A DNA stretch of 64,000 nucleotides, from NCBI GenBank assembly GCA_028279475.1, contig JANQNR010000010.1, positions 91,692 through 155,691 of the forward strand, written 5' to 3'. The notes under the pieces were generated by a model. It was not told the origin of the DNA. It saw nothing but the letters and a program-made list of their open reading frames with translations, and did no database searches. Below are positions 6,962 to 55,343 of this stretch, piece after piece. The position numbers were made by a program, and so were the translations under genes. The DNA comes from Rickettsiales bacterium (lineage in GTDB: Bacteria > Pseudomonadota > Alphaproteobacteria > Rickettsiales > UBA998). Numbering within the stretch: position 1 is the first letter of the stretch; every line of letters starts with the position of its first letter.

Positions 6962-7711
6962 ATGCAAGCGTATGAAGTATTAGCGGGGGACATGATCTTC
7001 TCCGAAGGCGATCCTGGGGAATATGCCTGTATTATCCGTACTGGACGCGTGCAGATCCTCAAGCATACGAAACAGGGCGAAGTCGAACTGGCTGTATTGA
7101 AAGAAGGGGAAGTGTTCGGTGAGATGGCGCTGTTCGAACCGCGGGATGACCGCTCCGCCAGCGCCCGCGCATTGGATCACGTAATCGTCGATGTGTTGAG
7201 CGCCGGTGAAATGCAGGAGATGCTTCAGCAAGCACCACCATTGTTACAACCCTTCCTCACCGCAATGGTATCACGGCTGAGAGAAATGAACCGACGGCTG
7301 GCGGAAAAAGAGCGGGCAACGGTGTTGCTGGGTCATAGCATCAACGTGCTCCATATCACGCCTTCAGGGTCGCTCAAGAACAACATCGCTCCGTTTGAAC
7401 TAAAAACTGCGAATCTGCCATACACAATAGGCGGTTACGAAGACAATCTGCCGGAACCACCGCATAGCACCGATCTAGAGATTCCCTGCGACCCAGCACG
7501 GATGAATGTCAGCTATGAACATTGTTCCATCGAGAATCATGATGATGGGGTATATGTCGTGGATCACGGCAGTCGCTTCAAGACCACTGTCAACGACAAG
7601 CTGATTGGGCGGGGCGAAGCAACCACCAAGGCACTCCTGCTGCCGGGTGATAACGAAATCATTCTGGGTGATCCTTCGCAGGCGATGACACTATCAGTGC
7701 GTTGCGAATAA
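6962..7711 (+). CDS. Cyclic-nucleotide-binding domain protein with a C-terminal degenerate FHA domain
   Basis: The N-terminal cNMP-binding pattern is GDMIFSEGDPGEYACIIRTGRVQIL...GEVFGEMALF...RSASARA. The C-terminal FHA-like pattern is YTIGG...VSYEHCSI...VYVVDHGSRFKTTVNDKLI...LPGDNEIILGD. The SD ggagga lies upstream. Confidence 0.7.
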   Translation: MQAYEVLAGDMIFSEGDPGEYACIIRTGRVQILKHTKQGEVELAVLKEGEVFGEMALFEPRDDRSASARALDHVIVDVLSAGEMQEMLQQAPPLLQPFLTAMVSRLREMNRRLAEKERATVLLGHSINVLHITPSGSLKNNIAPFELKTANLPYTIGGYEDNLPEPPHSTDLEIPCDPARMNVSYEHCSIENHDDGVYVVDHGSRFKTTVNDKLIGRGEATTKALLLPGDNEIILGDPSQAMTLSVRCE

Positions 7712-7737: not shown

Positions 7738-8904
7738 CTAGCCCTGCGCACCGGCAAGTTCTTTACGGCGCTCCTGCTCTTTCGGTGCATCCAGTGAACT
7801 GCGACTGATTGGACGGAAGGTAAAGGCATCTTCTGTCAGGTTTGGTGCCGGAACATCCGGCTCGGAAACAGGTGCTGCTTTCACAACTTCAGGCTGCTGC
7901 TTGGCAATCGGAGTCGGTTGATCGCTCGATGCTTCCGCCTTCGGTGCCGACTGCACTACCGTCTCTTCCTCTGCCACAGGCGCACTTGCATCCTGAGGCA
8001 CACCTTGCTCTTCTTCCTGACGTAGTTTTTCGACCCGTTCATTAATCCGTTCGATATTCAGTGTTTTCAGCAAATCTCGCACTTCCTGACGCGCAGCGAT
8101 GTGAGACATGGAGACTTTCACATTGGCATTGGCTTCCATAACGTCCAATACGGTCAGCCCTTGCAGAAACAATTCACGATAGATCACCCGCTCACTGAAT
8201 CCTGGTGCTGCACGAAACCCGATACGGCGAGACAGGTCGGTGGTGACCTTGGCCATAAAGCGCTTATTCTTGGCGTCAATATTACTCAGGCGGTTACGCA
8301 TCACAATCCAGTCAATCGAACCACCGTCACGCTTGGCACGCTGCAATTTCTGTTCCCAGACGATTTCACTGTAAATACTCGGCTTAATAATTTCCAGCGT
8401 CCGTCCATCTACCGACGCCAGCACGTCCAGATCAACAAAACTGTCATTGATGGGCGTAATAATCGTATCGGCGAAAGAATGCGCCAGACGCGACAGATAA
8501 GTATCGTTTCCAGGCGTATCGATCACTACAAAATCGCAACTTCCGTAAATCGTAGACAGTGCCTGTGCGAATCGCTCACGCTCATCGCGCTTGGCTTCTT
8601 CCTGAGAATCAAACGGACTTTTATTCACCACCGCATGCCGAGGCATCGGCAGCGATACGCCTTCCTTGGCGATGGTCTGGCGGCGATTTTCCACATAACG
8701 AGTCAGGGAACGCTGGCGAGAATCCAAATCAATACAACCAACAGAAAATCCCAGCCGCAGCAGCGATACAATCAGGTGCATCGTTGTCGTTGTTTTTCCA
8801 CATCCACCTTTTTCATTGCCGACGATGATGACATGCGCTTTGCCAAAATCTTTAGATAGTTGGCCTGACGTGGTTGTTTCCGCTTGTCCCAACGATTGCT
8901 CCAT
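7738..8904 (-). CDS. mipZ: Division-plane positioning ATPase MipZ (ParA superfamily) with a long acidic/Pro-Ala-rich C-terminal extension
   Basis: VIIVGNEKGGCGKTTTTMHL...IDLDSRQRSLTRYVENRR...VIDTPG...NDSFVDLDVL...VIYRELF matches Caulobacter MipZ almost motif for motif. The start at MEQSLGQ follows the SD gagggagag. About 100 residues follow the MipZ core. Confidence 0.85.
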   Translation of the reverse strand: MEQSLGQAETTTSGQLSKDFGKAHVIIVGNEKGGCGKTTTTMHLIVSLLRLGFSVGCIDLDSRQRSLTRYVENRRQTIAKEGVSLPMPRHAVVNKSPFDSQEEAKRDERERFAQALSTIYGSCDFVVIDTPGNDTYLSRLAHSFADTIITPINDSFVDLDVLASVDGRTLEIIKPSIYSEIVWEQKLQRAKRDGGSIDWIVMRNRLSNIDAKNKRFMAKVTTDLSRRIGFRAAPGFSERVIYRELFLQGLTVLDVMEANANVKVSMSHIAARQEVRDLLKTLNIERINERVEKLRQEEEQGVPQDASAPVAEEETVVQSAPKAEASSDQPTPIAKQQPEVVKAAPVSEPDVPAPNLTEDAFTFRPISRSSLDAPKEQERRKELAGAQG

Positions 8905-9028
8905 AGAAAAACTCTCCCTCAATGCCTGTCTGCATGGTTGCAATGAACGTGTTTACACTACTCCATCATCACGAAATGTAAATAGGGTTTTGCAAAAAAC
9001 GCGACCGAAGCCCTATGAAAGGCGAGTT

Positions 9029-12166: not shown

Positions 12167-12315
12167 CGTTAACTAACCATATCTTGTAATCCAGGCATCA
12201 GTTAAGGAAAAAATAACGCCTTTACGCTACCAATGGATGGAGAAGTCATTGCATTCTGTCCCTATGTATCTGAAATATATATGGTGACACTGTAATGAGT
12301 GGATCATAAAAAATA

Positions 12316-13971
12316 ATGGATATTATGAGTAACGACGAATCTCAGAAAGGAGCCCCTCCTCCTCCCCCTCCGCCACCGCGACCACCAGCGGGAGACAAGC
12401 CGTCATTTCCTCCTATGCAGCGACTATTTGAGGCCGACCATAAAGCTGCTTCAAAAACTGAAACAACGATTCAAGAAGGAGTGGAACGTCCTACCGTAAC
12501 TAGCGCACCGCCTCCGCCTCCACGCCCAGACATGCCCCCGACGAGGCCAGAATTGGGGAACGCTCCCCAACCTGCGCCGCAAGCTGCACCTACTACATCG
12601 CCACCATTGCCCCCTATGCCGGAAAAACCTCCGGCCGTCACCAGCGCGCCACCCCCGCCTCCGCCTGCTCGTGAACCAGTAGCAACAGCACCTTCTCCGG
12701 CATCGCCTCCGCCTCCACCAGAGGCTCCAGTCATGCCTGCACCTGTCCCGCCGCCACCTGAACCAGCGCCGGAACCTACACCACCTCCGCCACCTGCTGC
12801 TACCGCTGCCCCGCCGGCACCTCCCACAGAAAAAAGCGGCATGGCGATTACTCAGGCGGTATTTGATCAGGCTATCGCCCAGCATGTATTGTGGCTGGAC
12901 ACGGATGGAAAAGAAGGGCGGCGCGCCAATTTTTCCAATGTTTCGTTCGAGGGAATTGATTTCTCAGGTGCTAATTTACAGCAAGCAAATCTTCGAGGAT
13001 CCAATCTTCGCCTTTGCGATTTACGCGGTGCCATCATGATGGATGCAGATTTAACGGAGGCTACACTGGATCAATGTAATGCCGCCGGATCTGACTGGAG
13101 TCGGGTAAATCTTGCCTCTGCCAGCCTGAATAACACACTATTGGAAGACATTGTGCTCACACAAGCCAATGCATTGGGCGCCAATATTCATCAAGCGAAC
13201 CTGAAGGGGGCTCAACTGGAACGCATCGTATTGCGTAATGCCTCTCTGGTTGAGACGGATTTTAGTGGCGCCAATCTGAGTCATGCCACGTGTCGAAGTG
13301 CTGATTTTACGCATGCGCGCCTAAACGATGCAATCCTGCATCAGACGGACATGCGTGATACACATTGTAACGGCACTGATTTCACCAATGCACAACTGGA
13401 ACAAGCATCCTTTAAAAATGCCCATTTCCAGGATGTTCCCTTCACCGTCACGGACTTTACGGCAGCCAATGATATACCCGTACAGGGTCAAAACCAGGGC
13501 TTGCAAATGGAAAAAGAACATATTGCCCAGGAGAAAAGCGAGCTAAAGCGTATGGAAGGTGAAATCGAACAGCGTCAAAGTGAAGTCACAGAAATGAGGT
13601 TACAGTTAGAAGAACAGCGCAACCTCATTCTGTCATTAAAAGCAGATGAAACCGTCTATATCAGCGGCCTGACCAAATTGCGTACCCGGATGAGGCTGAT
13701 TCGCCTGATATGGATTGTATGCTCTTTATTGTTACTGGCGGTAACGGCGCTGACCGTGATGTCCTTGGATATTGACGCGTTGAATATGCTGGAGCTAGGG
13801 ATTGTACTGATCATTCCGGTAGCGATATTAACACTGGTCATGTTCAGCCTGGCACAAGTATCTGGAGCATTGCGCCGTATTGAACATCATTCGATGATTC
13901 GGGAACGTAAAATCGCGGCGCTGACGCAAAGCGGGGAAGCGGCCAATCCTTCGGTTGACCCGGCGGGATAA
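12316..13971 (+). CDS. Proline-rich, pentapeptide-repeat, coiled-coil protein with two C-terminal transmembrane helices
   Basis: Residues ~10-170 carry multiple polyproline tracts, including the duplicated VTSAPPPPP. The middle ~190 aa are pentapeptide repeats (ANLQQANLRGSNLRLCDLRGA...). A coiled coil follows (EKSELKRMEGEIEQRQSEVTEMRLQLEEQRN). Then come two hydrophobic helices. No signal peptide. Confidence 0.8.
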   Translation: MDIMSNDESQKGAPPPPPPPPRPPAGDKPSFPPMQRLFEADHKAASKTETTIQEGVERPTVTSAPPPPPRPDMPPTRPELGNAPQPAPQAAPTTSPPLPPMPEKPPAVTSAPPPPPPAREPVATAPSPASPPPPPEAPVMPAPVPPPPEPAPEPTPPPPPAATAAPPAPPTEKSGMAITQAVFDQAIAQHVLWLDTDGKEGRRANFSNVSFEGIDFSGANLQQANLRGSNLRLCDLRGAIMMDADLTEATLDQCNAAGSDWSRVNLASASLNNTLLEDIVLTQANALGANIHQANLKGAQLERIVLRNASLVETDFSGANLSHATCRSADFTHARLNDAILHQTDMRDTHCNGTDFTNAQLEQASFKNAHFQDVPFTVTDFTAANDIPVQGQNQGLQMEKEHIAQEKSELKRMEGEIEQRQSEVTEMRLQLEEQRNLILSLKADETVYISGLTKLRTRMRLIRLIWIVCSLLLLAVTALTVMSLDIDALNMLELGIVLIIPVAILTLVMFSLAQVSGALRRIEHHSMIRERKIAALTQSGEAANPSVDPAG

Positions 13972-14010: not shown

Positions 14011-14568
14011 ATGACTCCGAAAGAACAACTGAAAAAACATATCTGCGTCTTCTGCGGCGCCCAAAATGCCGTACCGAAACAGCATCTGGAAGCAGGCCGT
14101 GCATTCGGCCAGGAAATGGCACAGCGAAAGCTGGGATTGGTCTATGGTGGTGGCGATTGCGGCGTCATGGGTGCCGTTGCGAATGCCGTATTGGAACACG
14201 GTGGCTGGGTCACCGGTGTATTTCCAGAAAACCTCCGCGCCATTGAAGAAGAGCATCAGCATCTGAATGAAACTATTCTGGTCGATGACATGCACTCCCG
14301 TAAACAGCTAATGTATAAGCGCTCGGAAATGTTCGTCATTTTTCCCGGCGGCTTCGGCACCATGGATGAAACCTTCGAAATCCTCACCTGGCGACAAATC
14401 GGCCTGCATGACAAGCCGGTGATTATTTTCAATCATGAGGGCTATTGGGATCATCTGGTAGCATTGTTTGATAATATCATTGATAACGGCTTTGCTACCC
14501 CCGAAACCCGTGACATCTATGAAGTAGTCGATACCATGGACGCCCTGCTGGAGCGGGTAGATCGTTAG
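14011..14568 (+). CDS. LOG family protein (cytokinin riboside 5'-monophosphate phosphoribohydrolase-like, TIGR00730-type)
   Basis: VFCGA, GLVYGGGDCGVMG, MHSRK and FPGGFGTMDETFE..TWRQIGLHDKP are LOG family signatures. Confidence 0.85.
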   Translation: MTPKEQLKKHICVFCGAQNAVPKQHLEAGRAFGQEMAQRKLGLVYGGGDCGVMGAVANAVLEHGGWVTGVFPENLRAIEEEHQHLNETILVDDMHSRKQLMYKRSEMFVIFPGGFGTMDETFEILTWRQIGLHDKPVIIFNHEGYWDHLVALFDNIIDNGFATPETRDIYEVVDTMDALLERVDR

Positions 14569-20615: not shown

Positions 20616-20702
20616 ATGAAACTATATGATTTTGGACTGGTGATTGCCATTGCCGGACTGGCCATGTTCGGTGCAGGCATTGTCGCAGAATATTACCTCT
20701 AG
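20616..20702 (+). CDS. Possible 28-aa hydrophobic peptide
   Basis: The ATG lies 8 nt after aaaggag. The product is MKLYDFGLVIAIAGLAMFGAGIVAEYYL, a single TM helix. Below the ORF-track size cut-off. Confidence 0.35.
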   Translation: MKLYDFGLVIAIAGLAMFGAGIVAEYYL

Positions 20703-21265
20703 AACAACTCAATATCATCACTATCGTCCGATGGATCGTCACCCTTGGCATAATCCTGCGTCAGGGTGTCGTCGGCCAGTCCATGTGCCTGAAACATTTC
20801 CAGCAGCGGCTCCCGGAATTCCTGTAACCTGACACGCTCTAATATAGTACGGCAATAAGGTGCCGCTCCTTTATCAATTGAGAAACTGCCTGTATCACCA
20901 TAAAGTGGCGCCAGTTCTTCTAAAATCTCGCAGGCATTCTCGATATACTGGCTGTTGCGATCCTGAAACTGCATATCCATCACCATCGCCCCGATATGTT
21001 CATGGATACGTTGCATCACCTGCATATGTTCCGTGGTTATTTCCACAACCGCGTGACGCGTTGCCGTATCCGATGAGGCCTGTACGATTGTGTCAATTGA
21101 CGCCATATAACGCTGCTGCATATCAATCGCTTCGGTCAAACCACGAAATTCGGCGCTGAGCTTCAAGGCCGTTTCTTCCACCAGCGTTGCCGCTTTGCGA
21201 AGTTTTTTCTCAATGACCTCAATACAGGCGGTCAACAACAGATGTCGTAGCATTTCCTGCGACAT
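20699..21265 (-). CDS. CheT/CheZ-like candidate CheY-P phosphatase (DxxxQ motif), last gene of the che operon
   Basis: A helical ~188-aa protein with MQFQDRNSQYIEN (compare CheZ QDFQDLTGQ) and the acidic C-terminus DDSDDIELF. The start at MSQEML follows the strong SD aggaggtg. Its position matches cheT/orf10 of the Sinorhizobium che operon. Confidence 0.6.
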   Translation of the reverse strand: MSQEMLRHLLLTACIEVIEKKLRKAATLVEETALKLSAEFRGLTEAIDMQQRYMASIDTIVQASSDTATRHAVVEITTEHMQVMQRIHEHIGAMVMDMQFQDRNSQYIENACEILEELAPLYGDTGSFSIDKGAAPYCRTILERVRLQEFREPLLEMFQAHGLADDTLTQDYAKGDDPSDDSDDIELF

Positions 21266-21290
21266 GGTGTCCACCTCCTGTCTACCTGTC

Positions 21291-22400
21291 TCAGTTGACG
21301 GCTGATTCAATGCGCTCATCTTCCACCTCCTCACATGTATGAATAATGGCCTGCGGCAATGCCTCTAGCGACAATTGCCGCACAACCGCACCACGTTCCT
21401 GCGCTGCTTTCGGCATTCCATAGACCACACAACTGGCTTGGTTCTGCCCAAACGTCATAGCACCGGCTTCCCGCATATTTAAGAGCCCATCTGCTCCATC
21501 CTCTCCCATACCGGTTAAAATCACCCCTATAGCATCTTTCCCCGCTTGCTGTGCCAGTGAATCAAACAGAGTATTCACAGAGGGACGGAATCCATTGACC
21601 GGTTCTTCTTCGTCGAGTTCACACCAATATTGCCCCATTCCTGCTCCCTCCTGACGTTTGATCCTCAGATGATAAAATCCCGGTGCAATATAAACATGTC
21701 CCGGCAGAATTTTCTGATGATGCTGCGCTTCAACCACTTTCATCGCACAGACTTTATCCAGCCGCCTGGCAAAGGAAGCCGTGAATACCGGCGGTGCGTG
21801 CTGGACAATGACAATCGGCGGCATATCACCCGGTAAGGGTTTTAGAACTTCGAGCAATGCTTCTACACCGCCGGTGGATGCCCCTATCCCGATAATCCAG
21901 GGACGAATCGACGCACCGGCACGAAAACGGTAACGTTTTGTTTTGGTTGGGGTGATAGTTGCATGATGAGATGAGTGACACCCTTTCTCAGCTGCAAATT
22001 TGACCTTCTTTGTCAGATCGGTCAATGTATGTTCCCATCCACCTTCCGCTGCACCGGAGGGCTTGGTGACGTAATCCACTGCGCCAGCTGCCAACGCCTC
22101 CACGGTTACATCCGCACCCTGCTCCGTAAGAGCTGATACCATTACCACCGGCATCGGGTGGCGTGCCATTACCTTTTTCAGGAAAGTCACACCATCCATC
22201 ATTGGCATGTTAACATCCAGCGTCAGCACATCTGGATGCAGCCTGGCAATCATCTCGGTCGCTTCGGTAGCATCACCCGCCGTACCCACAACCTTGATGG
22301 CCGGGTTACGGTTCAGCCAGGCACGGAACGTCTGACGAATGAACTGGGAATCGTCAACGATCAGTACCCGGATCAGTGAATTATCGGCCTCCGTACCCAT
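21291..22400 (-). CDS. cheB: Chemotaxis response regulator protein-glutamate methylesterase
   Basis: The receiver domain (RVLIVDDS...DVLTLDVNMPMMDG) is followed by the methylesterase domain (IGASTGG, QHMP-like VQHAPP, GMGEDGA). Confidence 0.95.
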   Translation of the reverse strand: MGTEADNSLIRVLIVDDSQFIRQTFRAWLNRNPAIKVVGTAGDATEATEMIARLHPDVLTLDVNMPMMDGVTFLKKVMARHPMPVVMVSALTEQGADVTVEALAAGAVDYVTKPSGAAEGGWEHTLTDLTKKVKFAAEKGCHSSHHATITPTKTKRYRFRAGASIRPWIIGIGASTGGVEALLEVLKPLPGDMPPIVIVQHAPPVFTASFARRLDKVCAMKVVEAQHHQKILPGHVYIAPGFYHLRIKRQEGAGMGQYWCELDEEEPVNGFRPSVNTLFDSLAQQAGKDAIGVILTGMGEDGADGLLNMREAGAMTFGQNQASCVVYGMPKAAQERGAVVRQLSLEALPQAIIHTCEEVEDERIESAVN

Positions 22401-29870: not shown

Positions 29871-30497
29871 TTACGGCGCATGGGGCGGACGGTTAACATG
29901 ATGCTGCGGCGGGGTTGGCTCCTCAGTCAACGAATCATCGCCACTAAAGACCAGCAAAATACTGGCCAGTGACGCCAGCAGAAATCCCAGTGCAATCGTC
30001 TGACCGAATAGGAAATACAGCGTATCAGCCAATGGTGGTGGCGTATCCACCCCGGAGCCCCCCATATGGAACGCATAAGGCATCAGTACAAAGGCGGCCA
30101 GCAACAATCCGCGATGATCCAGAAAGAGCACCAGCAACAATACGAGCAGCGCCGCCCCCCATCCCAACAAATAAATGGCCGGATAGAGCTGCGCATCCAG
30201 CGCCACCAACCCGCCTCCTAAAAAGGCCAGGATATAGGCAATTGGCAACATCCCCCAGCCATAACGGCGGAACCGGGCACAAATCCCGGTCAGCAAAATA
30301 ATCCCCAGCCATCCGGCCGGTGAAGTCAATACCGTCATAAAGCCGTATGTCAGCCCAGCACCGGGCGCCCCACCCGGTGGAATCACCACTAGCAAGATGG
30401 ACGCCAGCAGGAAGCAGACAAAAAATGTCGTATAAATACGCGTGATTGGCACAGTCGCAGTAATGGTTGGGTTAAATTGATTAAATACTGTCATCAT
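29871..30497 (-). CDS. Hypothetical polytopic inner-membrane protein (about six TM helices) with a Pro/His-rich tail
   Basis: The hydrophobicity pattern runs through 208 aa. No diagnostic motif is recognised, and HupE/UreJ-like motifs are absent. Confidence 0.55.
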   Translation of the reverse strand: MMTVFNQFNPTITATVPITRIYTTFFVCFLLASILLVVIPPGGAPGAGLTYGFMTVLTSPAGWLGIILLTGICARFRRYGWGMLPIAYILAFLGGGLVALDAQLYPAIYLLGWGAALLVLLLVLFLDHRGLLLAAFVLMPYAFHMGGSGVDTPPPLADTLYFLFGQTIALGFLLASLASILLVFSGDDSLTEEPTPPQHHVNRPPHAP

Positions 30498-33128: not shown

Positions 33129-34262
33129 TCACTCAACAAAATGTATTTTTCTGATATTTATCCCTTGTACTTTTAAATCAATCGCAGGTGGCCCACTTTT
33201 CGATTTAGGCCTAAACCCAACCCAGTCACCATTTGGTAGGTTGCGTCCCTCAGAACCTTTATATGATTTTGGCTTGAAAGCCCGCCCATTAGTAGAAAGT
33301 TCATCATATAGCTTTCTTGCAGAAAATTCATCGCCTTTCACTTCCCTTATTCTTGCTCCATCCCCTTTTCTACCAATAAAACGTCCATTTGGCATTAAAA
33401 TGTCTTGCAGCCTTCTTGAAGTTTGCCTTGCAAGGCGCTCGTCCCGATACCCCCTTAGTCGTTGTGCAGCATTGCGGGAGAGAGTGCGGATGCCGTCGAG
33501 TGCGGCGGGGACACCGACCCACAGCGCCCGTCCCACACCCAGCGTCGCCAAGCTCAGCCCCAGATCACGCACCTGCTCGCGTAACGCGTCCTCCGTCGGC
33601 AATGGATCAGGACGCGGCGGAGCAGGCACGCTCGGCGGCAACGGCTCGGCAACACACCGGCAACCATACGCCACACCAGGATGCCCGCCCGGCGGCGGAT
33701 CATCCCAGCTGAACACCCGGTCATCATAAAACGCATGCACATCACGCACCTGCTCGTCATCGGAGGAACGCCAGATATAGGCGAGCACCCCTGCCTCACG
33801 CTGACGTCGTGCATCGAGGTTACGCTGCATCCGTCGCTGCACGCCCAGCGCCTCATGCAGAATGCGCCGTTCCACTTGCACCAGCAACGGCTCCTGACGG
33901 GTGAAGGCCTTGCGTTGTGGCATCATCGCTTTGCGTTGTTGTCCCGGCAGCAGGCGCTCCAACCGCTCGAACAGTTTGGTCATGCCGCGTACATATTGAT
34001 AGGCAAAATTGGCGCGCACCTCATCAAGATAGGGTTCCGTACCCAGCACCTCCGTATCCTTGCCCCATGACGCCAGCAGGTTAGAGAATTGTGCCCGGTG
34101 GTCGGCTTCTGCCTCTTCGACAATGTCCGGTGCCATCGCCATTGCATCCGAAACGGCAGTCAGTGCATCCAGCACCTCGATTTCCGAAAACCGCACCCGT
34201 TGCCGGCGTTTATACTCCCGGTATCGCGCTTCCCCATAGAATATCGCTGGTTCCTCGTACAT
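33129..34262 (-). CDS. MuF-domain (Phage_Mu_F / SPP1 gp7 family) polymorphic toxin with an unclassified basic C-terminal domain
   Basis: The MuF signature is YIWRSSDDEQVRDVHAFYDDRVFSWDDPPPGGHPGVAYGCRCVAEP. A Pro-rich linker follows. The C-terminal ~90 aa are Lys/Arg-rich (…GRNLPNGDWVGFRPKSKSGPPAIDLKVQGINIRKIHFVE). Confidence 0.8.
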   Translation of the reverse strand: MYEEPAIFYGEARYREYKRRQRVRFSEIEVLDALTAVSDAMAMAPDIVEEAEADHRAQFSNLLASWGKDTEVLGTEPYLDEVRANFAYQYVRGMTKLFERLERLLPGQQRKAMMPQRKAFTRQEPLLVQVERRILHEALGVQRRMQRNLDARRQREAGVLAYIWRSSDDEQVRDVHAFYDDRVFSWDDPPPGGHPGVAYGCRCVAEPLPPSVPAPPRPDPLPTEDALREQVRDLGLSLATLGVGRALWVGVPAALDGIRTLSRNAAQRLRGYRDERLARQTSRRLQDILMPNGRFIGRKGDGARIREVKGDEFSARKLYDELSTNGRAFKPKSYKGSEGRNLPNGDWVGFRPKSKSGPPAIDLKVQGINIRKIHFVE

Positions 34263-34393: not shown

Positions 34394-35875
34394 ATGTCAA
34401 AACCGGGATTAGAATTACGCCAAGGTCAGTCACTGGTCATGACGCAGCAATTGCGTCAGTCCATCAGCCTGTTGCAACTCTCTACACCTGAACTTAATAA
34501 CGTCATCGAAGCGGAACTAGAGAAAAACCCGCTGCTTACGCGCGAAGAGGAACGGCAAGACACGGAGGTGCCAGCCAGCACGACCAAGGATGACCCCCAT
34601 CCTGATGCGGAACCACCGGGTGAACCACTTCCACAACAGCAAGAGATCGCCACAGAATCTGTCGATATGGATGCCGGCGATGTCTGGGGGGAATCCGACA
34701 CACGTTACACGCTGGATCGCGACGGTGCACAGAGCATGAGGCATGGCACATCCGACCTGTCCGACCTCATTGAACAGCGAGTGGCATCCGGCACGACATT
34801 GCACGAAGCACTGATGGCACAAATGCGACTTCGCACCCATTCTGCACTGGAAGAGAAAATTGCCGAAGCCATGGTTGATATGGTGGATAGCGCCGGGTAC
34901 CTGCCGCCGGACGCCCAGGAACGCGCCGCGCAACTGGGCATTGACAGCCCGGACTATGTCCGTACCATCGGCTATCTTCAGGAATGCGAACCAACCGGTG
35001 TCGGTGCGCGTAGCCTCCAGGAATGCCTCAGCCTGCAACTAGCCGAACAGGGGTTGCTCAGTACATCGATGCAGCAATTACTGGAACATCTGGAACTGGT
35101 TGCAAAAGGTGACCTGAAGCGCCTGTGCAAATTATGTGGCATCACACGGGAAGCGTTAGCAGAATTCATGGCAAATATACGGCGCTGCGATCCCAAGCCT
35201 GGCAGCCGCTACGATACGCACACCCCGCAAACCCTGATTCCGGAAGTACTGGTGCGTAAACATCCGGACGGCCAATGGGTCATCGAACTCAACCCGGAAA
35301 CCCTGCCTGGTGTCCTGCTGGATCAGGATTATACGCGCCGACTTAAGCAAGGCATCCGGGACAAAAACGACGCCAAGGCTGTTAACACGCATCTTACCAA
35401 TGCCAACTGGCTATTGCGTGCCATCGACCAACGCAACACGACCCTGCTCAACGTCGCCACTGAAATCGTAAAACAGCAAGAGCATTTCTTTGAATTTGGC
35501 ATTCAGTACCTCAAGCCCATGACACTGAAGGATATTGCCACCGAAGTGGATTGCCATGAAAGCACGGTCAGCCGGATCACCACCAGTAAATACCTGCACT
35601 GCACTCGCGGGACGTTTGAACTCAAATATTTCTTCACCTCCACGCTGGGCAACGCCAATGGCGGCACCGCCTATTCCAGCCGCACCGTGATGCACCTGAT
35701 TCAACAAATGACGGACGAAGAATCCCCGGACGCCATCCTGTCCGATGATGCGATGACTAAGCAGCTGAACCGTAAGGGCATTGATGTCGCCCGCCGCACT
35801 GTCGTCAAATATCGCAAACAAATGGGTATTCCTTCTTCCGTCGAACGCCGGCGCATAAAAAGAGTGCACCCGTAA
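34394..35875 (+). CDS. rpoN: RNA polymerase sigma-54 factor
   Basis: The N-terminal region I is LELRQGQSLVMTQQLRQSISLLQLS. The acidic region II follows. The C-terminal part holds an HTH and the RpoN box ARRTVVKYR. Confidence 0.95.
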   Translation: MSKPGLELRQGQSLVMTQQLRQSISLLQLSTPELNNVIEAELEKNPLLTREEERQDTEVPASTTKDDPHPDAEPPGEPLPQQQEIATESVDMDAGDVWGESDTRYTLDRDGAQSMRHGTSDLSDLIEQRVASGTTLHEALMAQMRLRTHSALEEKIAEAMVDMVDSAGYLPPDAQERAAQLGIDSPDYVRTIGYLQECEPTGVGARSLQECLSLQLAEQGLLSTSMQQLLEHLELVAKGDLKRLCKLCGITREALAEFMANIRRCDPKPGSRYDTHTPQTLIPEVLVRKHPDGQWVIELNPETLPGVLLDQDYTRRLKQGIRDKNDAKAVNTHLTNANWLLRAIDQRNTTLLNVATEIVKQQEHFFEFGIQYLKPMTLKDIATEVDCHESTVSRITTSKYLHCTRGTFELKYFFTSTLGNANGGTAYSSRTVMHLIQQMTDEESPDAILSDDAMTKQLNRKGIDVARRTVVKYRKQMGIPSSVERRRIKRVHP

Positions 35876-35888
35876 TCAACCATAGGGT

Positions 35889-36737
35889 TTACCCGCTCCG
35901 CGTGGTGGCCGTTTCCAACAGACGATCAAAGCCCGGCACATGCGGTTCACCACGAAAATTGATGGCATTACTAAACCGGGTCTTACAGGTGGTGAAGCGC
36001 TTATCACATCCTTCACTCAACACATAGGTATCGCCGATTGACGGCGCGTAAGGAAGCGGCAACATCAGGGTGATTTGACCAGGCTGGTAGGCTTTAACCT
36101 CGATGGCAATACCGTCATTGGCACCACCGGTAAAGGTCAGCACTCCATGCGCATAGGTATCGGAAATTTCGCCGCGACTACTGTCAAACAGGATCGTTGT
36201 GCCATCGACGCTGGTCAGCGACCCGGTAACCGTCCGCGCTCCCATATCGACCTTGCAGGCAGTATCTCCCAACTCCGCTCGACAAGTCGGACTATAGACA
36301 CTGCCAACCGTCTGGGTCAACTTCTGCGTAAGGCCACGGATTTCGGCGGTGAACTGCTCTCCACTCCAAGTGACCTCTCCCAGCCAACCAAATCGTAATG
36401 GTAGGGCACCTTGCGTCACATCCTCAACATTCACCTGAAATACCTCAATCTCAGCGAAATCGTACAGCCCGGCCAGAATATCCGCCTCGTCAATCACGGC
36501 GGAATCGAGCATACCTTCAATGTCGAGATTATCAACGGCCAGCGTCGCCGACCCGGCAATCGCAGTGGGCGTCAGACCGGATGCTGCCTCATAGGTAACA
36601 CCCTCAAACAGGATCGGCCGGTCATGATCGGTAAAGCCCAGCACGACCGCATCTCGGCGCGTCAGCTTCCAGCATGTGGCCAATGTCGTCACCTCCTGCA
36701 TCAGGTGATTTTGTAACGCTGTAGATAGTGTTTTCAT
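35889..36737 (-). CDS. GTA g13-like protein (DUF2163 / phage BR0599 family)
   Basis: LATCWKLTRRDAVVLGFTDHDRPILFEGVTYEAASG and the C-terminal CDKRFTTCKTRFSNAINFRGEPHVPG are the TIGR02218-type pattern. Confidence 0.85.
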   Translation of the reverse strand: MKTLSTALQNHLMQEVTTLATCWKLTRRDAVVLGFTDHDRPILFEGVTYEAASGLTPTAIAGSATLAVDNLDIEGMLDSAVIDEADILAGLYDFAEIEVFQVNVEDVTQGALPLRFGWLGEVTWSGEQFTAEIRGLTQKLTQTVGSVYSPTCRAELGDTACKVDMGARTVTGSLTSVDGTTILFDSSRGEISDTYAHGVLTFTGGANDGIAIEVKAYQPGQITLMLPLPYAPSIGDTYVLSEGCDKRFTTCKTRFSNAINFRGEPHVPGFDRLLETATTRSG

Positions 36738-36739
36738 CG

Positions 36740-37339
36740 TCAGACCTCCCGCACTTCAACCAGCGGAATGTCACCCCAGGAGTAAAGCCCGGCATCATCC
36801 AGTCGCGCAGTGAGCTGGTCGGTTTCAAACCTCACCGGTACATCAAATTCTCCATCCACGGAAATCGGCACGCCACTACCAGGCGCAGCACTGAACGTCA
36901 CCAGGCCGGTGGTAGCATCCACAACTACCCCCGAGATTTGCAACACCCCATCCAGAAACACATCCATGACACCCGCCACCGGGCGCGTGATCGGACGCGT
37001 GTAGGTCTCACTACCACTGCTATAGGTTTTAATCAGTTGAAACTGCGTGGTACTGCCGTCACCGGTGCCAATCACCTGACCGATCAATCGATAATCACTC
37101 CAATCCTTGAAGCGAAAGGCCTGCCACCGCCCAGCACGTGCCCTGAAAAACGCAATCAGCGCATCGAGCTGCGTCTGATTCTTGATGCCATGCGCAACAT
37201 TATAGACATTCCGCGCCTGCGCCCAGTTGCGGTTGCGCTTCTCATAACCACCAGCATTGGTAGTGATGACCGTAGAGAATACTGGCCCACCTGCCGAACC
37301 ATAGGCAATATCTTCTGGGAATCGTTCGTCACTGAACAT
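36740..37339 (-). CDS. GTA g12-like protein (DUF2460 / TIGR02217 family)
   Basis: ERFPEDIAYGSAGGPVFSTVITTNAGGYEKRNRNWAQARNVYNVAHGIK matches the conserved N-terminus of this family. The gene ends 2 nt before g13. Confidence 0.85.
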   Translation of the reverse strand: MFSDERFPEDIAYGSAGGPVFSTVITTNAGGYEKRNRNWAQARNVYNVAHGIKNQTQLDALIAFFRARAGRWQAFRFKDWSDYRLIGQVIGTGDGSTTQFQLIKTYSSGSETYTRPITRPVAGVMDVFLDGVLQISGVVVDATTGLVTFSAAPGSGVPISVDGEFDVPVRFETDQLTARLDDAGLYSWGDIPLVEVREV

Positions 37340-39805: not shown

Positions 39806-40132
39806 TCACTTACAATACGTACTCTTTTCCATCTCGCGGATGTCGACGGAGAGGCGATCGACCGAGGGGATGTGTTCTTTTACCAAGTCAAACACCTGCC
39901 GTGACAGATCGGCGCGCTCATGCTCCATCCGCCCGGAAAGGATCGCTACTGTCACATGCAAGAAATTTTCTGCCCCTTCCGGCAACAACACCTGCTCATA
40001 CGCAATCGCACGTGCTTTTACTGCCTGCGGCGAGAACAATCCGCACTCCGAGACCAGCCGGTGCACCGCCTTCAGCGCGTCCGGGATATGGGGGTGTAAT
40101 ACAGTGGAATATTCAAGAATGATATGGGGCAT
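39806..40132 (-). CDS. 5-carboxymethyl-2-hydroxymuconate isomerase family (tautomerase-like) protein
   Basis: It starts MPHIILEYS (catalytic Pro1 pattern, as in E. coli HpcD MPHFIVECS). Its length is ~108 aa and it ends SVDIREMEKSTYCK. The longer ORF-track N-terminus overlaps the EIIA gene and is rejected. Confidence 0.7.
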   Translation of the reverse strand: MPHIILEYSTVLHPHIPDALKAVHRLVSECGLFSPQAVKARAIAYEQVLLPEGAENFLHVTVAILSGRMEHERADLSRQVFDLVKEHIPSVDRLSVDIREMEKSTYCK

Positions 40133-40145
40133 GGCACTAAGATCG

Positions 40146-40559
40146 TTAACTAGCTTCTTCCAGCTCTTCCAACACTTCGCTGAGCACGTAGATATATTTC
40201 TTCGCAACTCCCTTCGATTCCTGCACGGCATCTTTAATGGAAAGCACCTGCCGCGTGGTCAGAAGCTTCAACAGCATCGCCAGGTTCATACCCGACATCA
40301 CTTCCACGTTCCAGCTTTGTGCCACGGAGATAGACAGGTTGCATGGCACGCCGCCGAACATGTCGGTGACAATCACCACCCCGCGCTGGCGATCAACCGC
40401 CTCAATGGCGCGCGCAATGGACTCGCGGACGCTTTCCATATCGTCCCCGATATTATAGCTGACGCATTTGACATAATCCTGGCGGCCAATCATTTCCTCG
40501 GCCACACTCATATAGGTCTGCGCCAACTCGCCATGCGCCACCAGCACCACGCCTAACAC
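40146..40559 (-). CDS. PTS EIIA component, mannose/fructose family
   Basis: GVVLVAHGELA (active-site His) and VIVTDMFGGVPCN match the alphaproteobacterial regulatory EIIA(Man). Confidence 0.85.
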   Translation of the reverse strand: MLGVVLVAHGELAQTYMSVAEEMIGRQDYVKCVSYNIGDDMESVRESIARAIEAVDRQRGVVIVTDMFGGVPCNLSISVAQSWNVEVMSGMNLAMLLKLLTTRQVLSIKDAVQESKGVAKKYIYVLSEVLEELEEAS

Positions 40560-50890: not shown

Positions 50891-53068
50891 CTATATATCC
50901 TGTCCCAGCAACGCGCACGCCGCTTCCACAATCGTTTCCTTGCTGGGCAGGGTCAGGGTGGATGCCTTCCCGATGGGGATAAAGCTGTCTTTGGCGCAAA
51001 GGCGTGCAATCTGAAACGACTGGTGCTGCGCACGTGCCAGCAAGGTCAGCAGCCCTTCACTGATCGATCCGGTCTGACGGCATTCATCGACCATCAGAAT
51101 ATAGCTGAATGTCTCGATCGCATCCAGAATCGCCTGTTCCGGTAGCGGGTGCAACCAGCACAGATCGATCACCGTACAATAGATGTCATGTTCGTCCGCC
51201 AGAAGTTTCATCGCCTGACAGGAGAGATAAGTGCCATTGCCATAGGTGAGAATGCACAGATCATGGCCGGTGCCATAATGCCGAATCTGTTGAAAGGGAA
51301 TGGTGGTTGTGCGGGCGTCCTGATAGCAATCGGACCAGCCCTGATCGCCTTGTTCATGCAGGTCACGGGTGCCGTACAGTGCGATGGGCTCCAGAAAGAT
51401 CACCACACGCTGCTCTTCTTCACAGAGCCGCACACATTCACGCAGCATGGCTACCGCATTGGCACCATTACTGGGACAGGCAACAATAATCCCCGGAATG
51501 TCACGTAATACGGCGATACTGTTGTCGTTATGAAAATGCCCACCAAAGCCCTTCTGGTAGGCAAGCCCGGCAATGCGCACAATCATCGGGTTGGTGAATT
51601 GTCCTTTTGAGAAAAAGCTGAGCGTGGCCGCTTCTCCGCGTAGCTGGTCTTCAGCGTTGTGCAGATAGGCAAGAAATTGTATTTCAACGATCGGCAATAA
51701 TTGGTTATGCGCCATACCGATCGCAAGCCCAAGAATGCTTTGTTCATCCAGCAAGGTATCAATGACGCGATGCTTTCCGAAGCGCTGGAGCAGTTTTTTC
51801 GTGACCCCATAGACGCCGCCCTTTTTGCCAATATCCTCACCAGCCAGCACCATCTGCGGGTGGTCGTGCATGAGTTCATGCAGCGCCATATTCAGCAAGC
51901 GTACCATGGGGAGCGCTTTATCGGCATCGGCCATGGGAGGTAACGTATTGTTGGACGGTCGTGGCGGAACGCTGCGCGCAGGCGGCACAATACTCGCCAT
52001 GACATCGTTGGCGCTGGAAAGCTTGGGGCGTGTGATGGCGCGTGCCGCCTCTTCTTCCACTTCCTTTGCGATCTGTTGATAAAGGGTGATGATGTCCTCT
52101 GACGTGAGGATCCGATGATCCAATAGCAATCGCGCCGAATGGAGCAACGGGTCCTTAGCATTCATCTCAGCGATCTGCGCATCTGACAGGTAGCTGCTTT
52201 GTACGTCTGAGCCGGCATGCCCCATCAGCCGGACACACTCCATATGCAGAAAGACCGGTGCTCGGCGTCCACGGGCATGATCGGCGGTTTTTTTCGCCAT
52301 CTGATAGGTGTCGATCAGGTTGAGGCCATTGCAGCGCAGATAGGTAATACCGGGTTTGGATTGCATGCAGGCGGCCACCCATCCTTCCGGTGTCGGTACG
52401 GAAATGCCGATACCGTTATCTTCACAGATAAAGACGATCGGCACATGCATCCCCTGATATGCCATCCAGGCGGCAGTATTGATGGCTCCCTGCGCGGTAG
52501 AATGATTCAGCGACGCATCGCCAAAACTGCACAGAATCACGCCATCATCACGCAACGCACCCTGATGGCCACCGCTTCTGGCAATGCCGATACTGGCCGC
52601 CGTTCCCACGGCTTTGGGCAGGTGTGAAGCGATAGTACTGGTTTGGGGAGGAATAAAGAGCGATTTACTGCCAAGCACCTTATGGCGTCCGCCGGCAATC
52701 GGGTCGTCAGACGAGGCGGTAAAGCTCAATAATAAATCACGCATCGGATGCTGATTCGGCAGTTGCTTGGCGCGTTGGATGAAAAATGCCGCGTCACGAT
52801 AATGCAGAAAGGCCATATCATCTGGGCGGAACGCGGCAGCAACGGCAGCCATGCCCTCATGGCCGGCGCTGCCGATGGTGTAAAAACTTTCTCCGCGTTG
52901 TTGCAGCCTGCGGGAACAATAATCGAGGTGACGGCTGAGAAGCTGACTTTTAAAGAGCGCTAATAACGGTAGGTCTGGCGGCAATGGTGCCGGGGATACC
53001 TCCGGCAGTGTTCCGGATGCTACGGATGATAGAAAGGCGTCATGCAGAAGATCGGCACCATCTATCAA
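50891..53068 (-). CDS. Fused E1 alpha/beta thiamine-diphosphate-dependent 2-oxoacid dehydrogenase component
   Basis: The N-terminal half is like E1-alpha (GSAGHEGMAA, GDASLNHSTAQGAIN). The C-terminal half is like E1-beta/transketolase (VLAGEDIGKKGGVYGVTKKL...RVIDTLLDEQSILGLAIGMA). Confidence 0.85.
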   Translation of the reverse strand: MIDGADLLHDAFLSSVASGTLPEVSPAPLPPDLPLLALFKSQLLSRHLDYCSRRLQQRGESFYTIGSAGHEGMAAVAAAFRPDDMAFLHYRDAAFFIQRAKQLPNQHPMRDLLLSFTASSDDPIAGGRHKVLGSKSLFIPPQTSTIASHLPKAVGTAASIGIARSGGHQGALRDDGVILCSFGDASLNHSTAQGAINTAAWMAYQGMHVPIVFICEDNGIGISVPTPEGWVAACMQSKPGITYLRCNGLNLIDTYQMAKKTADHARGRRAPVFLHMECVRLMGHAGSDVQSSYLSDAQIAEMNAKDPLLHSARLLLDHRILTSEDIITLYQQIAKEVEEEAARAITRPKLSSANDVMASIVPPARSVPPRPSNNTLPPMADADKALPMVRLLNMALHELMHDHPQMVLAGEDIGKKGGVYGVTKKLLQRFGKHRVIDTLLDEQSILGLAIGMAHNQLLPIVEIQFLAYLHNAEDQLRGEAATLSFFSKGQFTNPMIVRIAGLAYQKGFGGHFHNDNSIAVLRDIPGIIVACPSNGANAVAMLRECVRLCEEEQRVVIFLEPIALYGTRDLHEQGDQGWSDCYQDARTTTIPFQQIRHYGTGHDLCILTYGNGTYLSCQAMKLLADEHDIYCTVIDLCWLHPLPEQAILDAIETFSYILMVDECRQTGSISEGLLTLLARAQHQSFQIARLCAKDSFIPIGKASTLTLPSKETIVEAACALLGQDI

Positions 53069-54189
53069 CGCGCCAACTCCAACACCAATGTCGCCAACTC
53101 ATCCGCTGCCGATGGCGTGCCCAGGGTACGCGCCTCCTGTGCTGCACGCTCCAGCGTGGCTGGCAGGTTCAGGAACGATTCCAGCCGGGCGGCCAACGCT
53201 TCCGGGGTAAAGGCATCTTGTGGCATCAACCAGGCACCGCCCGCATCGTCAAGCGCTCGGGCATTTTCTTCCTGGTGCCCATCAGCAGAACTTGGTAATG
53301 GCACAAGAATTGAAGGACGGCCTGCACAGGTCAGCTCCGCAACTGTAGAGGCACCAGAACGAGCTACAACCAGATGGGCGCCTGCCAATCGTGCCGGAAT
53401 ATCGGGGAAAAATGGCATGAGCTCCGCCTGTACCTGCACGTCCTGATAAGCCTGACGCAGCGATTCCAGCTGTTCAGCACGCACCTGTTGGTCGATGCGC
53501 AGACGTTTGCGCAACGCTTCCGGCAGTAAGGCAACGGCTTTAGGCAGCACCTCGCCAAAAATCAACGCACCTTGTGATCCACCAGTAATGAGGAGTTGCA
53601 TCATCCCGTCAGATTGTAATTGCGGATAGGGTACATTACGCAATGCCTGAATGGCTGAACGCACCGGGTTGCCAACACGTGTCAGCTTCCCGGCATCATC
53701 CGGCGCGACCATGCCGGTAGATTCAAATGAGGAGGCAATGCGGTCAACGCGGGAAGCCAGTACGCGATTCGCTTTGCCTAGCAAGGCATTCTGCTCATGA
53801 ATAAGTGTGGGGAAACGTCCGGCTGCTGTCAGCATGGTTGGAAACGAAGGGTAGCCACCGAATCCGACAACCACATCCGGCTTGACCCTTGCAAGTATCC
53901 GGCGCGCCTGCCACATGGCCAACGCGTTATGGTAAGCACCGGAAAGCTTGCTGCGGAGCGTGGTGCCAAACGTCGCGGCAGAAATGAAATGGATAGGAAT
54001 GCGGGTTAGTGCCGACTCACTGCGTGTGCGGTAATCGTCAAAGCGGCGGTCGGTGACCAGTATCGGGTGATGCCCCTGCTCCAGCAACACTTCTGCCAAC
54101 GCTTCCGCCGGAAAAATATGGCCACCGGTGCCACCGGTTGCCAGGATGATCGTGCGGCTCTGCGTATTGCTCACGAGGTAGCGCTCCAA
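53065..54189 (-). CDS. murG: UDP-N-acetylglucosamine--N-acetylmuramyl-(pentapeptide) pyrophosphoryl-undecaprenol GlcNAc transferase
   Basis: ATGGTGGHIFPA, GGYPS, TGGSQGA, RSGASTVAEL and Q..NA are MurG motifs. Confidence 0.95.
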   Translation of the reverse strand: MERYLVSNTQSRTIILATGGTGGHIFPAEALAEVLLEQGHHPILVTDRRFDDYRTRSESALTRIPIHFISAATFGTTLRSKLSGAYHNALAMWQARRILARVKPDVVVGFGGYPSFPTMLTAAGRFPTLIHEQNALLGKANRVLASRVDRIASSFESTGMVAPDDAGKLTRVGNPVRSAIQALRNVPYPQLQSDGMMQLLITGGSQGALIFGEVLPKAVALLPEALRKRLRIDQQVRAEQLESLRQAYQDVQVQAELMPFFPDIPARLAGAHLVVARSGASTVAELTCAGRPSILVPLPSSADGHQEENARALDDAGGAWLMPQDAFTPEALAARLESFLNLPATLERAAQEARTLGTPSAADELATLVLELAR

Positions 54190-55343
54190 TGATAGGGGGT
54201 TGTGTGCGTGAGTGAGCCGAATTTACGTCGTGTCAGTCCCAAAATACACCCGGCAGTCATGGCCATGGCGAGCAACGACGAACCACCATAGCTCAAAAAG
54301 GGTAGCGTCATTCCCTTGGCTGGAAGTAGATGCACGGCAACACCCATATTGATGAATGCCTGTAATCCAAATTGTGCCACCAACCCAGTGACGGCCAGCA
54401 TGGGAAATAATTCCTGTACTTGTGCTGCCTTATAGAATCCACGAAGTACCAATGCCGCAAACATCATGATGGTGATGAGAGCAATGAATAATCCGAACTC
54501 TTCACCAATCACGGCATAAACAAAATCCGTATGCGCGTCGGGTAGCGACCATTTCACATCCCCTGCACCAGGACCCTGGCCAATCAACCCGCCGGAGGCA
54601 AAAGCCTCCAATGATTTGTTGACCTGGTAATTATCGGTTGAAGAAGGATCCAAAAACCCGTTAATCCGGTCGGCGACATGGGGAAACCAATGATACGCAC
54701 CAATCAGGATAGCGATCCCGACCACGCCTATCAACAGTACCCATAGCATGGGGATACCGGAAAGGAAGAGTTGTACGGCGAAGATGCTGGTCAACACCAT
54801 CAGCATGCCGATATCTGGTTGGAGCAAGAGCAGCAAGGCAGCAAAAACATACAGTCCTGAGGCGATTCGATAGCCAGGGAAACCGGGAATCTGCTGGCGC
54901 TCTGACAATACCCAGGCAACGACAATGACGAAGCACGGTTTCATAAATTCCGAGGGTTGCAGCGAGAGTGGTCCCAGCTTGAGCCAGCGTGTGGCACCTT
55001 TGGCGTCCATGCCTAGTACCGGTAATAAGGCCATAATGACCAGCGTGCCGAGCAGGCCGATACTGGCCAGTCGCCGAATAGTGCGACGTTCTAACGTCGC
55101 GAACCAGAGCATGGTAATGAAAGAGAGCAGAACAAACACCCATTGCCGAATCACGAAATGATATGGTTCCATACCGATACGGCGCGCGACCGGAGGACTG
55201 GACGCCAGTACCAGCACCGATCCGACAACCAGCAACGATAAAAAACCGGCCAGCAACCAACGATCGACCGTCCACCACAAAATATTAATCCGCCCAGCCC
55301 GCGTCCGGTCACGCCACATGCTTTCCCCCCAAACCCGTGACAC
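54171..55343 (-). CDS. ftsW: Cell division protein FtsW (SEDS family)
   Basis: A 10-TM SEDS pattern with SLQPSEFMKP, LLLLQPD.G, P.AHTDF.YAVIGEE.G and LP.KGMTLPF.SYGGSS. The start could be 55343 or 55319. Confidence 0.9.
   Translation of the reverse strand: MSRVWGESMWRDRTRAGRINILWWTVDRWLLAGFLSLLVVGSVLVLASSPPVARRIGMEPYHFVIRQWVFVLLSFITMLWFATLERRTIRRLASIGLLGTLVIMALLPVLGMDAKGATRWLKLGPLSLQPSEFMKPCFVIVVAWVLSERQQIPGFPGYRIASGLYVFAALLLLLQPDIGMLMVLTSIFAVQLFLSGIPMLWVLLIGVVGIAILIGAYHWFPHVADRINGFLDPSSTDNYQVNKSLEAFASGGLIGQGPGAGDVKWSLPDAHTDFVYAVIGEEFGLFIALITIMMFAALVLRGFYKAAQVQELFPMLAVTGLVAQFGLQAFINMGVAVHLLPAKGMTLPFLSYGGSSLLAMAMTAGCILGLTRRKFGSLTHTTPYHWSATS

Follow-up and report, generated by a model that had tools for sequence, protein, structure and literature searches.

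A predicted membrane-tethered pentapeptide-repeat protein encoded next to a LOG gene in uncultured Alphaproteobacteria

The combination of polyproline tracts, pentapeptide repeats, a coiled coil and a pair of hydrophobic helices in a single bacterial protein raises the question whether such a protein is directed towards a eukaryotic host or serves the bacterial cell itself. This question is posed by a gene at positions 12316 to 13971 of a stretch of 64,000 nucleotides, subsequently called the window, which covers positions 91,692 to 155,691 of contig JANQNR010000010.1 from the Rickettsiales bacterium assembly GCA_028279475.1. A preliminary description of this DNA, made from the sequence without database searches, had considered the gene product a plausible host-interaction or cell-envelope scaffold protein with a leaning towards an effector. 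Domain, structure and family analyses lead us to favour, with about an even chance of being correct, an inner-membrane-tethered and cytoplasm-facing pentapeptide-repeat protein (PRP) with a role as scaffold or regulator, which would act together with a co-expressed LOG enzyme, use a conserved basic stripe as its working surface and carry its proline-rich head as a lineage-specific tether. The elements of the locus are the following, with all coordinates referring to the window.

12316..13971, forward strand: open reading frame (ORF) of the PRP, 551 amino acids from an ATG start; by ORF list, domain search and AlphaFold2 (AF2) model a predicted membrane-tethered pentapeptide-repeat protein
12316..12840, forward strand: disordered proline-rich extension, residues 1-175, lineage-specific (AF2, composition, family comparison)
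12853..12900, forward strand: cap helix, residues 180-195, followed by the motif HxxWLxxxGxEGRRAN (AF2, alignment)
12913..13470, forward strand: 37 pentapeptide units, residues 200-385, predicted to form ~9.5 coils of a right-handed quadrilateral beta-helix
12994..13416, forward strand: basic ladder R227, R307, R327, R347 and K367, a putative ligand-binding stripe (conservation)
13480..13686, forward strand: coiled-coil stalk of ten heptads, residues 389-457 (heptad analysis, AF2)
13687..13869, forward strand: membrane hairpin, residues 458-518, with transmembrane helix 1 (TM1) at ~458-483, an acidic loop at 484-490 and TM2 at 491-518
13870..13968, forward strand: basic, presumably cytoplasmic tail RRIEHHSMIRERK..., residues 519-551, helical to ~542 (AF2, conservation)
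14011..14568, forward strand: LOG / TIGR00730 gene, 185 amino acids from ATG 14011 (domain models, adjacency)

The favoured reading is carried by the conservation of the LOG gene next to the PRP gene and by the architecture of the PRP. The LOG gene starts 39 nt past the PRP stop codon, a scan of the window found no terminator-like site between the two genes, and they are presumably co-transcribed. A LOG gene lies directly downstream and on the same strand in all 24 loci inspected, which represent 21 lineages, and among the 20 loci in which the spacing was measured, 19 have 0-81 nt between the two genes; equally, when the LOG gene is taken as the starting point, a family member is found upstream in five out of five loci. 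All other neighbours vary, with sucB, purK, rpsR, lptE and radC among the upstream genes and mazG, ATP12, ubiA, addA, nagZ, sucB and a response regulator among the downstream ones. MipZ, RadC and SucB were considered as partners and rejected, as they are not conserved neighbours. Across the loci, LOG is 57-84% identical versus 25-54% for the PRP. Adjacency kept across such divergence is a classical signature of functional coupling and suggests, on comparative grounds, a physical or functional link between the PRP and LOG. With respect to its own family, the LOG protein scores 189.9 bits against the TIGR00730 cut-off of 96.35 bits and has kept the motifs PGGFGTMDE and MHSRK, while the model of the cytokinin-riboside-monophosphate LOG equivalog, NF058542, was failed with 128.9 versus 300 bits.

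The AF2 model of the PRP, built from a 15-sequence alignment, agrees with the layout given in the preliminary description, namely a proline-rich head, a beta-helix, a stalk and two helices. The folded part opens with the cap helix, the motif of which is nearly invariant among 36 family sequences (H190, W193, G198, G201 and R203 are 100% conserved). The ~190 residues of pentapeptide repeats recognized earlier are borne out by Pfam (PF00805 with 118.3 bits versus a cut-off of 20.2 and E=8.8e-35 in six stretches over residues ~200-385, in addition to PF13599 and PF13576), by AF2 with a predicted local distance difference test (pLDDT) of 94-98 over residues 200-385, and by Foldseek, which retrieved from the PDB solely pentapeptide-repeat proteins (HetL, Qnr, MfpA, AlbG) with a probability of 1.00. 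As in the PF00805 proteins HetL, Np275/276 and the Rfr family, tandem A(D/N)LXX units build up a right-handed quadrilateral beta-helix, and HetL is the best natural PDB match of the family (profile E=4.6e-43; Foldseek). However, the known PRP structures are soluble and comprise 150-260 amino acids, whereas the window protein adds a 70-residue stalk, a hairpin, a clade-limited polyproline head and a fixed LOG partner; its architecture is a new variant of a known fold.

The ladder residues of the beta-helix are lysine or arginine in 94-100% of the 36 sequences and, since they hold the same position in successive 20-residue coils, they are placed on one face of the beta-helix, with the conserved acidic residues D245, D345, D348, D380 and D386 beside them. 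The domain as a whole is acidic, with a net charge of -11 in the window protein and of +3 to -16 in the family, so that the basic ladder is a specific feature.

The heptad coiled coil which had been described behind the repeats is equally confirmed, as a single unbroken heptad register extends over residues 389-457 with a hydrophobic residue at position a in nine of ten heptads, and the occupancy of positions a and d is 0.70, a value reached in none of 5000 shuffles, compared with 0.41 in shuffled sequences. In the AF2 model, residues 389-483 form one continuous helix that runs from the stalk into TM1, which is followed by a turn (484-490) and a second helix (491-542) made up of TM2 and part of the tail. 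Two hydrophobic helices are thus present according to hydropathy and AF2, with W466 of the hairpin 97% conserved, but they are not located at the extreme C-terminus as had been stated, because a 33-residue basic tail lies behind them. Consistent with the lack of an N-terminal signal peptide noted before, hydropathy detected no hydrophobic stretch ahead of residue 457. Around the hairpin, lysine and arginine together average 3.3 residues ahead of TM1, 0.5 within the loop and 4.9 behind TM2, and the loop has a mean of 2.3 acidic residues. By the positive-inside rule, this distribution places both termini in the cytoplasm, so that the beta-helix and the proline-rich head are expected to face the bacterial cytoplasm; the predicted topology is an N-in/C-in inner-membrane hairpin.

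How widespread is this protein? A search of 5.8 billion clusters recovered five full-length relatives of 36-48% identity, and a scan of 185,579 species genomes recovered twelve loci, all of them from uncultured metagenome-assembled genomes (MAGs) labelled 'Alphaproteobacteria' or 'Rickettsiales'. Further members were obtained by profile searches, with 17 full-length single-stretch members among the 150 matches listed by HMMER and mostly long multi-PRP proteins as the rest, and two more through look-ups anchored on LOG. Altogether, at least 36 distinct family sequences were assembled from varied metagenomes, all belonging to uncultured Alphaproteobacteria or 'Rickettsiales'-labelled MAGs. No publication on such a PRP family was found in literature searches. 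The family is small, previously undescribed and restricted so far to uncultured Alphaproteobacteria. Short forms of 377-443 amino acids, which start 0-28 residues before the cap helix, account for 20 of the 36 members, while the members with long N-termini (77-602 amino acids), the window protein among them, group into one clade when the core is analysed by neighbour joining; a separate N-terminal extension without polyproline arose in P0032 and P0224. The core of the family is conserved and the N-terminus variable or absent, and the proline-rich head was added late and in a single clade.

Some members deserve a separate comment. The closest relative, L020 (GCA_010672725.1, JAAHFY010000094.1), with a PRP 54% and a LOG 84% identical to those of the window, derives from a MAG labelled as the cyanobacterium Sphaerospermopsis; this contig is probably mis-binned, as its neighbouring genes sucB, rsmI, lppC and a secretin look proteobacterial. 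The cap motif in the form WLx[ST][DE]G[KR]EG is also present in PRPs on viral contigs (IMG/VR, L032-L038), which have no stalk and hairpin, which indicates that the cap is a wider type of PRP N-cap. Short terminal sequences vary by clade: P0010, P0012-17, P0166, P0185 and P0207 end with (V/I/F)TYL-COOH, L012-14, P0263, L025, L028 and P0234 end with RRKGLFGKKA-COOH, and a similar KGKGLFxSLLKKDK is found inside the disordered N-terminal region of a third clade (P0005/L011/P0157). To judge from their sequences, these clade-specific motifs resemble mobile peptides for docking or for binding to membranes.

The proline-rich head, which gave rise to the effector interpretation, requires consideration of the start codon in the first place. 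On a public contig (locus L023, 2723-3961) that is 100% identical to the window across 6350 nt, the gene is called from M140 with a product of 412 amino acids. M140 corresponds to window position 12733 and bypasses most of the polyproline region, so that the start codon annotation is inconsistent between records; as the gene caller chose M140 on an identical contig, we infer rather than observe the translation of residues 1-139. The long form starting at 12316 is likely, though not proven, because the frame opens just two codons 5' of this ATG, the 149 nt upstream are AT-rich and all close relatives of the window protein have N-terminal extensions. The sequence upstream and the opposite strand contain the following elements.

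12167..12315, forward strand: AT-rich spacer of 149 nt between sucB and the PRP gene, likely promoter region
12451..12885, reverse strand: antisense ORF rich in arginine and tryptophan, a mirror of CCN codons and not a gene
12471..12842, reverse strand: antisense glycine-rich ORF overlapping the previous one, a CCN-codon mirror artefact and not a gene

A consensus sigma-70 site was not found in the spacer, and a scan for promoters and terminators returned a number of sites no higher than expected by chance. The two opposite-strand ORFs had already been dismissed as the mere complement of proline codons, with which their composition as arginine/tryptophan-rich and glycine-rich mirrors agrees.

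Proline makes up 38% of residues 1-175. Where at least five polyproline runs had been noted in the first ~170 residues, six can be counted (14-21, 65-69, 112-117, 131-135, 145-148 and 156-160, with lengths of 8, 5, 6, 5, 4 and 5), and of the six runs of at least five prolines in all six frames of the window, five fall into the PRP ORF, while the sixth (17224) lies in another frame than the ORF called at that place. The proline codons are mixed (CCT 25, CCG 19, CCA 17, CCC 6), the GC content by codon position of 0.75/0.71/0.40 displays coding periodicity and not a DNA microsatellite, and the duplicated VTSAPPPPP segments share no more than 64% DNA identity, observations that speak for selection on the protein rather than repeat slippage. 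In the AF2 model, the region is disordered with block-mean pLDDT values of 33-53; 135 residues of the protein have values <50, nearly all of them within residues 1-175.

Conservation of the head is another matter. Once the statistics are corrected for composition, no other member has an N-terminus significantly similar to that of the window protein; in relatives, polyproline runs reach up to 12 residues. Homology of the proline-rich regions was therefore rejected; a match of 'APPPPPRPDM' to P0001 is not significant and may reflect composition alone. The motif MPx[LMI][SA][DE][LIM]xxPx[LMS]R occurs near the N-terminus of ten long forms in the 34-sequence table and of L030 (carriers include L001-L004, L006, L009-L011, L018 and L030), but neither the window protein nor P0011, its closest relative, has it. 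Most likely, the polyproline head is a flexible tether that carries short linear motifs and not the core function.

Combining these observations, we propose that the C-terminal two-helix hairpin would anchor the protein in the inner membrane, with the acidic loop in the periplasm and the basic flanks in the cytoplasm, and that the stalk of ~70 residues (~10 nm), which probably dimerizes or forms a higher oligomer, would hold the 9.5-coil beta-helix off the membrane. The conserved basic stripe and the neighbouring acidic residues on the last coils would provide the working surface. The downstream LOG, a member of the nucleotide 5'-monophosphate phosphoribohydrolase family that would be co-expressed, is the best candidate for a bound or regulated partner, or it might be an enzyme of the same pathway, while the polyproline N-terminus would represent a disordered extension gained in one sub-clade.

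On the other hand, a number of points weigh against this proposal. Stalk and hairpin have no covering entry in Pfam or NCBIfam and no relative in the PDB, and the C-terminal module gives sub-threshold matches only to DUF2207_C, in 13 of 18 members. A fusion of PRP and LOG was absent among the matches listed in either search, and the conserved adjacency could mirror shared transcription only. The family census is a lower bound, because long multi-PRP proteins dominate the 150 HMMER matches listed, and the host bacteria are uncultured. Furthermore, the long-form locus L030 on a 1.9-Mb contig is flanked by genes for an RCC1-repeat (eukaryote-like) protein and for an ICMT-like methyltransferase (1-1759 and 1923-2540), and the long-form locus L002 by one for a TPS-domain exoprotein (1-1591), neighbours that are possible hints of host or cell-cell interaction in these lineages.

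The alternative that survives best, although not very likely, is that of a membrane scaffold or landmark, for example in division, polarity or envelope processes, which has no relation to LOG and next to which LOG has persisted as it needs the upstream promoter. The architecture, as seen in the AF2 model, the charge pattern and the heptads, would fit such a protein just as well, the variable terminal short motifs (MPxLSDLKKPxLR; KGLFxxLLKK or GLFGKKA-COOH; VTYL-COOH) are typical of hub proteins, and no PRP-LOG fusion occurred among the matches listed. However, the 24 of 24 adjacencies hold although the PRP has diverged down to 25-30% identity and LOG down to 57% and the neighbours have been reshuffled, and by the usual logic of comparative genomics this is stronger than what promoter sharing normally maintains. 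A general logic of membrane anchor, proline-rich segment and cytoplasmic domain is also realized in ZipA-type tethers, which consist of a TM anchor, a P/Q-rich linker and a globular binding domain; this is an analogy only, as the order is reversed in the window protein and the folds are unrelated, and FtsZ binding is not implied.

Quite unlikely appears a HalA-like ligand-gated membrane effector or channel, in which an oligomer of hairpins would form a pore, the beta-helix crown would bind a nucleotide-derived ligand through the ladder and LOG would set the ligand level. HalA, the ion-channel effector of the Hailong system, is a PRP-bearing membrane channel, a tetramer whose cytoplasmic crown binds an oligonucleotide, and is paired with one nucleotide-handling enzyme (PMC13434031). 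The window protein resembles it in the joining of a PRP-like cytoplasmic part with TM helices and in forming, together with a nucleotide-processing enzyme, a unit of two genes, in addition to which it has the conserved basic stripe, and the family profile matches the PRP-like segment of HalA (PDB 9nyi_A) with E=1.1e-3, while the NCBIfam model of HalA matches with E=2.9e-7. Nevertheless, the similarity covers the repeat region alone (21-30 bits) and results from the shared repeat fold, the score for NF051894 is 30 bits compared with a cut-off of 250, the stalk and hairpin are dissimilar to HalA, and the partner is a LOG hydrolase rather than the HalB nucleotidyltransferase. Nor is there a defence island: PADLOC gives no Hailong match, and the pair is single-copy, apparently vertically inherited, located among housekeeping genes and absent from viral contigs, with a LOG that is as conserved (57-84%) as a core enzyme. 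A defence function in general was likewise rejected, as PADLOC on the window returned only noise (AbiZ 0.0022, PsyrA 0.0018) and viral contigs contained only cap-motif PRPs but no full-length members.

An unlikely, more far-reaching extension of the favoured scaffold with its LOG partner borrows from this comparison. The PRP-hairpin protein and LOG might constitute an unrecognized two-component module, in which a membrane oligomer senses or gates on a purine- or nucleotide-derived ligand via the ladder and LOG makes or destroys this ligand, a housekeeping counterpart of HalA/HalB with a proline-rich head that carries docking motifs in one clade.

Very improbable is the secreted or host-membrane effector, whose polyproline would recruit profilin, SH3 and EVH1 domains and whose bilobed hydrophobic domain would insert into host membranes in the manner of chlamydial Inc proteins. 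The idea draws on polyproline runs, which comprise 5-8 residues in the window protein and as many as 12 in relatives, on four PxxPx[RK] motifs, which carry low information, on a hairpin that like the bilobed domain of Inc proteins consists of two TM helices with a loop of ~7 residues, on the occurrence of PRP domains in the effectors PipB2, PipB, SopA and NleL, on the RCC1-repeat and TPS neighbours of some long-form loci and on the long-form motif MPxLSDLKKPxLR, which loosely recalls WH2. Against the idea, the proline-rich region is missing from 20 of 36 members and unconserved in sequence, hence dispensable in the family, and the window protein is devoid of the shared long-form motif. Reading this motif as WH2 was rejected, as no Pfam WH2 was detected even at E<=10 in eight N-terminal regions. 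The likeness to the FH1, WASP and ActA regions drawn before extends to the polyproline tracts and not to the accompanying module, since WH2, FH2 and FPPPP ([FWYL]PPPP) are missing by Pfam and motif scan, as are PPxY and LFNEF. The PRP domain is shared with PipB2, PipB and SopA/NleL, but neither a HECT domain (Pfam) nor the C-terminal LFNEF of PipB2 is present, and all NCBIfam scores are far below cut-off (PipB2 66.3 versus 354 bits, PipB 58.7 versus 274, SopA 43 versus 500), the matches being due to the common repeat fold. A bilobed hydrophobic domain, in turn, is unspecific to Inc proteins, whose context of an obligate intracellular life style with a type III secretion system is not encountered in the 64 kb analysed.

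In fact, no secretion system and no eukaryote-like domain is encoded within the 64 kb of the window, where chemotaxis, phasin, gene transfer agent (GTA)-like and biosynthetic genes are found instead. The PRP gene is a single-copy syntenic orthologue next to LOG in biosynthetically competent genomes (purEK, hisD, nadC and fol genes), with other neighbours being housekeeping or biosynthetic. Recruitment of profilin, SH3 or EVH1 domains of a host by an effector is thus not supported in view of the proline-rich head missing from most members, the predicted cytoplasmic topology, the synteny with LOG and the lack of WH2, FPPPP and PPxY, while 'scaffold protein' remains the best description. Homologues occur in relatives that would seem to be free-living to judge from their gene content, in the spirit of what had been named as evidence against the effector, although their envelope role is not defined.

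Least credible is a DNA mimic that would be tethered to the membrane and act on a topoisomerase in the manner of Qnr, MfpA and AlbG, as suggested by the shared fold, the approximate length of the beta-helix, the acidic net charge of the domain and the structural and sequence matches to these proteins, because the matches reflect the fold only and remain far below the family cut-offs (NCBIfam Qnr 50.4 versus 240, MfpA 43.2 versus 360), the window protein is predicted to be tethered by a membrane hairpin, the basic ladder that stands out as the best-conserved trait of its surface is the opposite of DNA mimicry, gyrase genes are not linked to it and a parallel stalk would presumably set the helices side by side, whereas the rods of Qnr and MfpA are arranged tail to tail.

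What had been a candidate host-interaction effector thereby gives way to a conserved two-gene unit specific to uncultured Alphaproteobacteria. Although PRPs are abundant, few have a known function, and a family with a fixed partner enzyme, a conserved surface and an anchor is unusually testable. Equally, bacterial LOG enzymes are poorly understood beyond cytokinin production, and if they had an obligate partner in the membrane, this would suggest that the cleavage of nucleotide monophosphates is controlled in space or by a ligand.

The wider gene content is of the free-living type and, in spite of the label 'Rickettsiales', unlike that of obligate intracellular bacteria with reduced genomes. 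The window encodes gshA, gshB, a proA-like aldehyde dehydrogenase, proC, MipZ, a phasin, sucB, mazG and pdxJ, a complete che operon (CheA, W, R, D and B with a methyl-accepting chemotaxis protein carrying a PAS domain) and, furthermore, rpoN, GTA-like genes, rapZ, hpf, icd, hemC, hemH, ftsW, murG, serS and polA. The loci of relatives adjoin purEK, hisD, nadC and genes of the folate and methylerythritol phosphate (MEP) pathways.

Several genes of the window are of interest in their own right. Four ORFs of 200-240 amino acids are without Pfam match (51-659 and 39840-40556 on the forward strand, 20699-21334 and 29871-30497 on the reverse strand), with 51-659 and 20699-21334 lacking an NCBIfam match as well. 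An uncommon pairing of an N-terminal cyclic-nucleotide-binding with a C-terminal FHA domain is encoded at 6962-7711 (forward strand), adjoining tRNA-Asn and mipZ. The MipZ homologue itself (7738-8943, reverse strand, 400 amino acids) contains its MipZ domain in residues 36-296 and ~100 extra C-terminal residues without domain match. At 33129-34262 and 35889-37339 on the reverse strand, a Mu-F-like gene and three genes for GTA-type tail or baseplate proteins (Gp84_N/BR0599, DUF2460) are split by rpoN (34394-35875) and look like a fragmented GTA or prophage remnant. Finally, ftsW and murG are situated directly upstream of a fused E1 alpha/beta dehydrogenase of 724 amino acids (50891-55343, reverse strand) and outside a full dcw cluster, which is consistent with the scrambled operons noted in the preliminary description.

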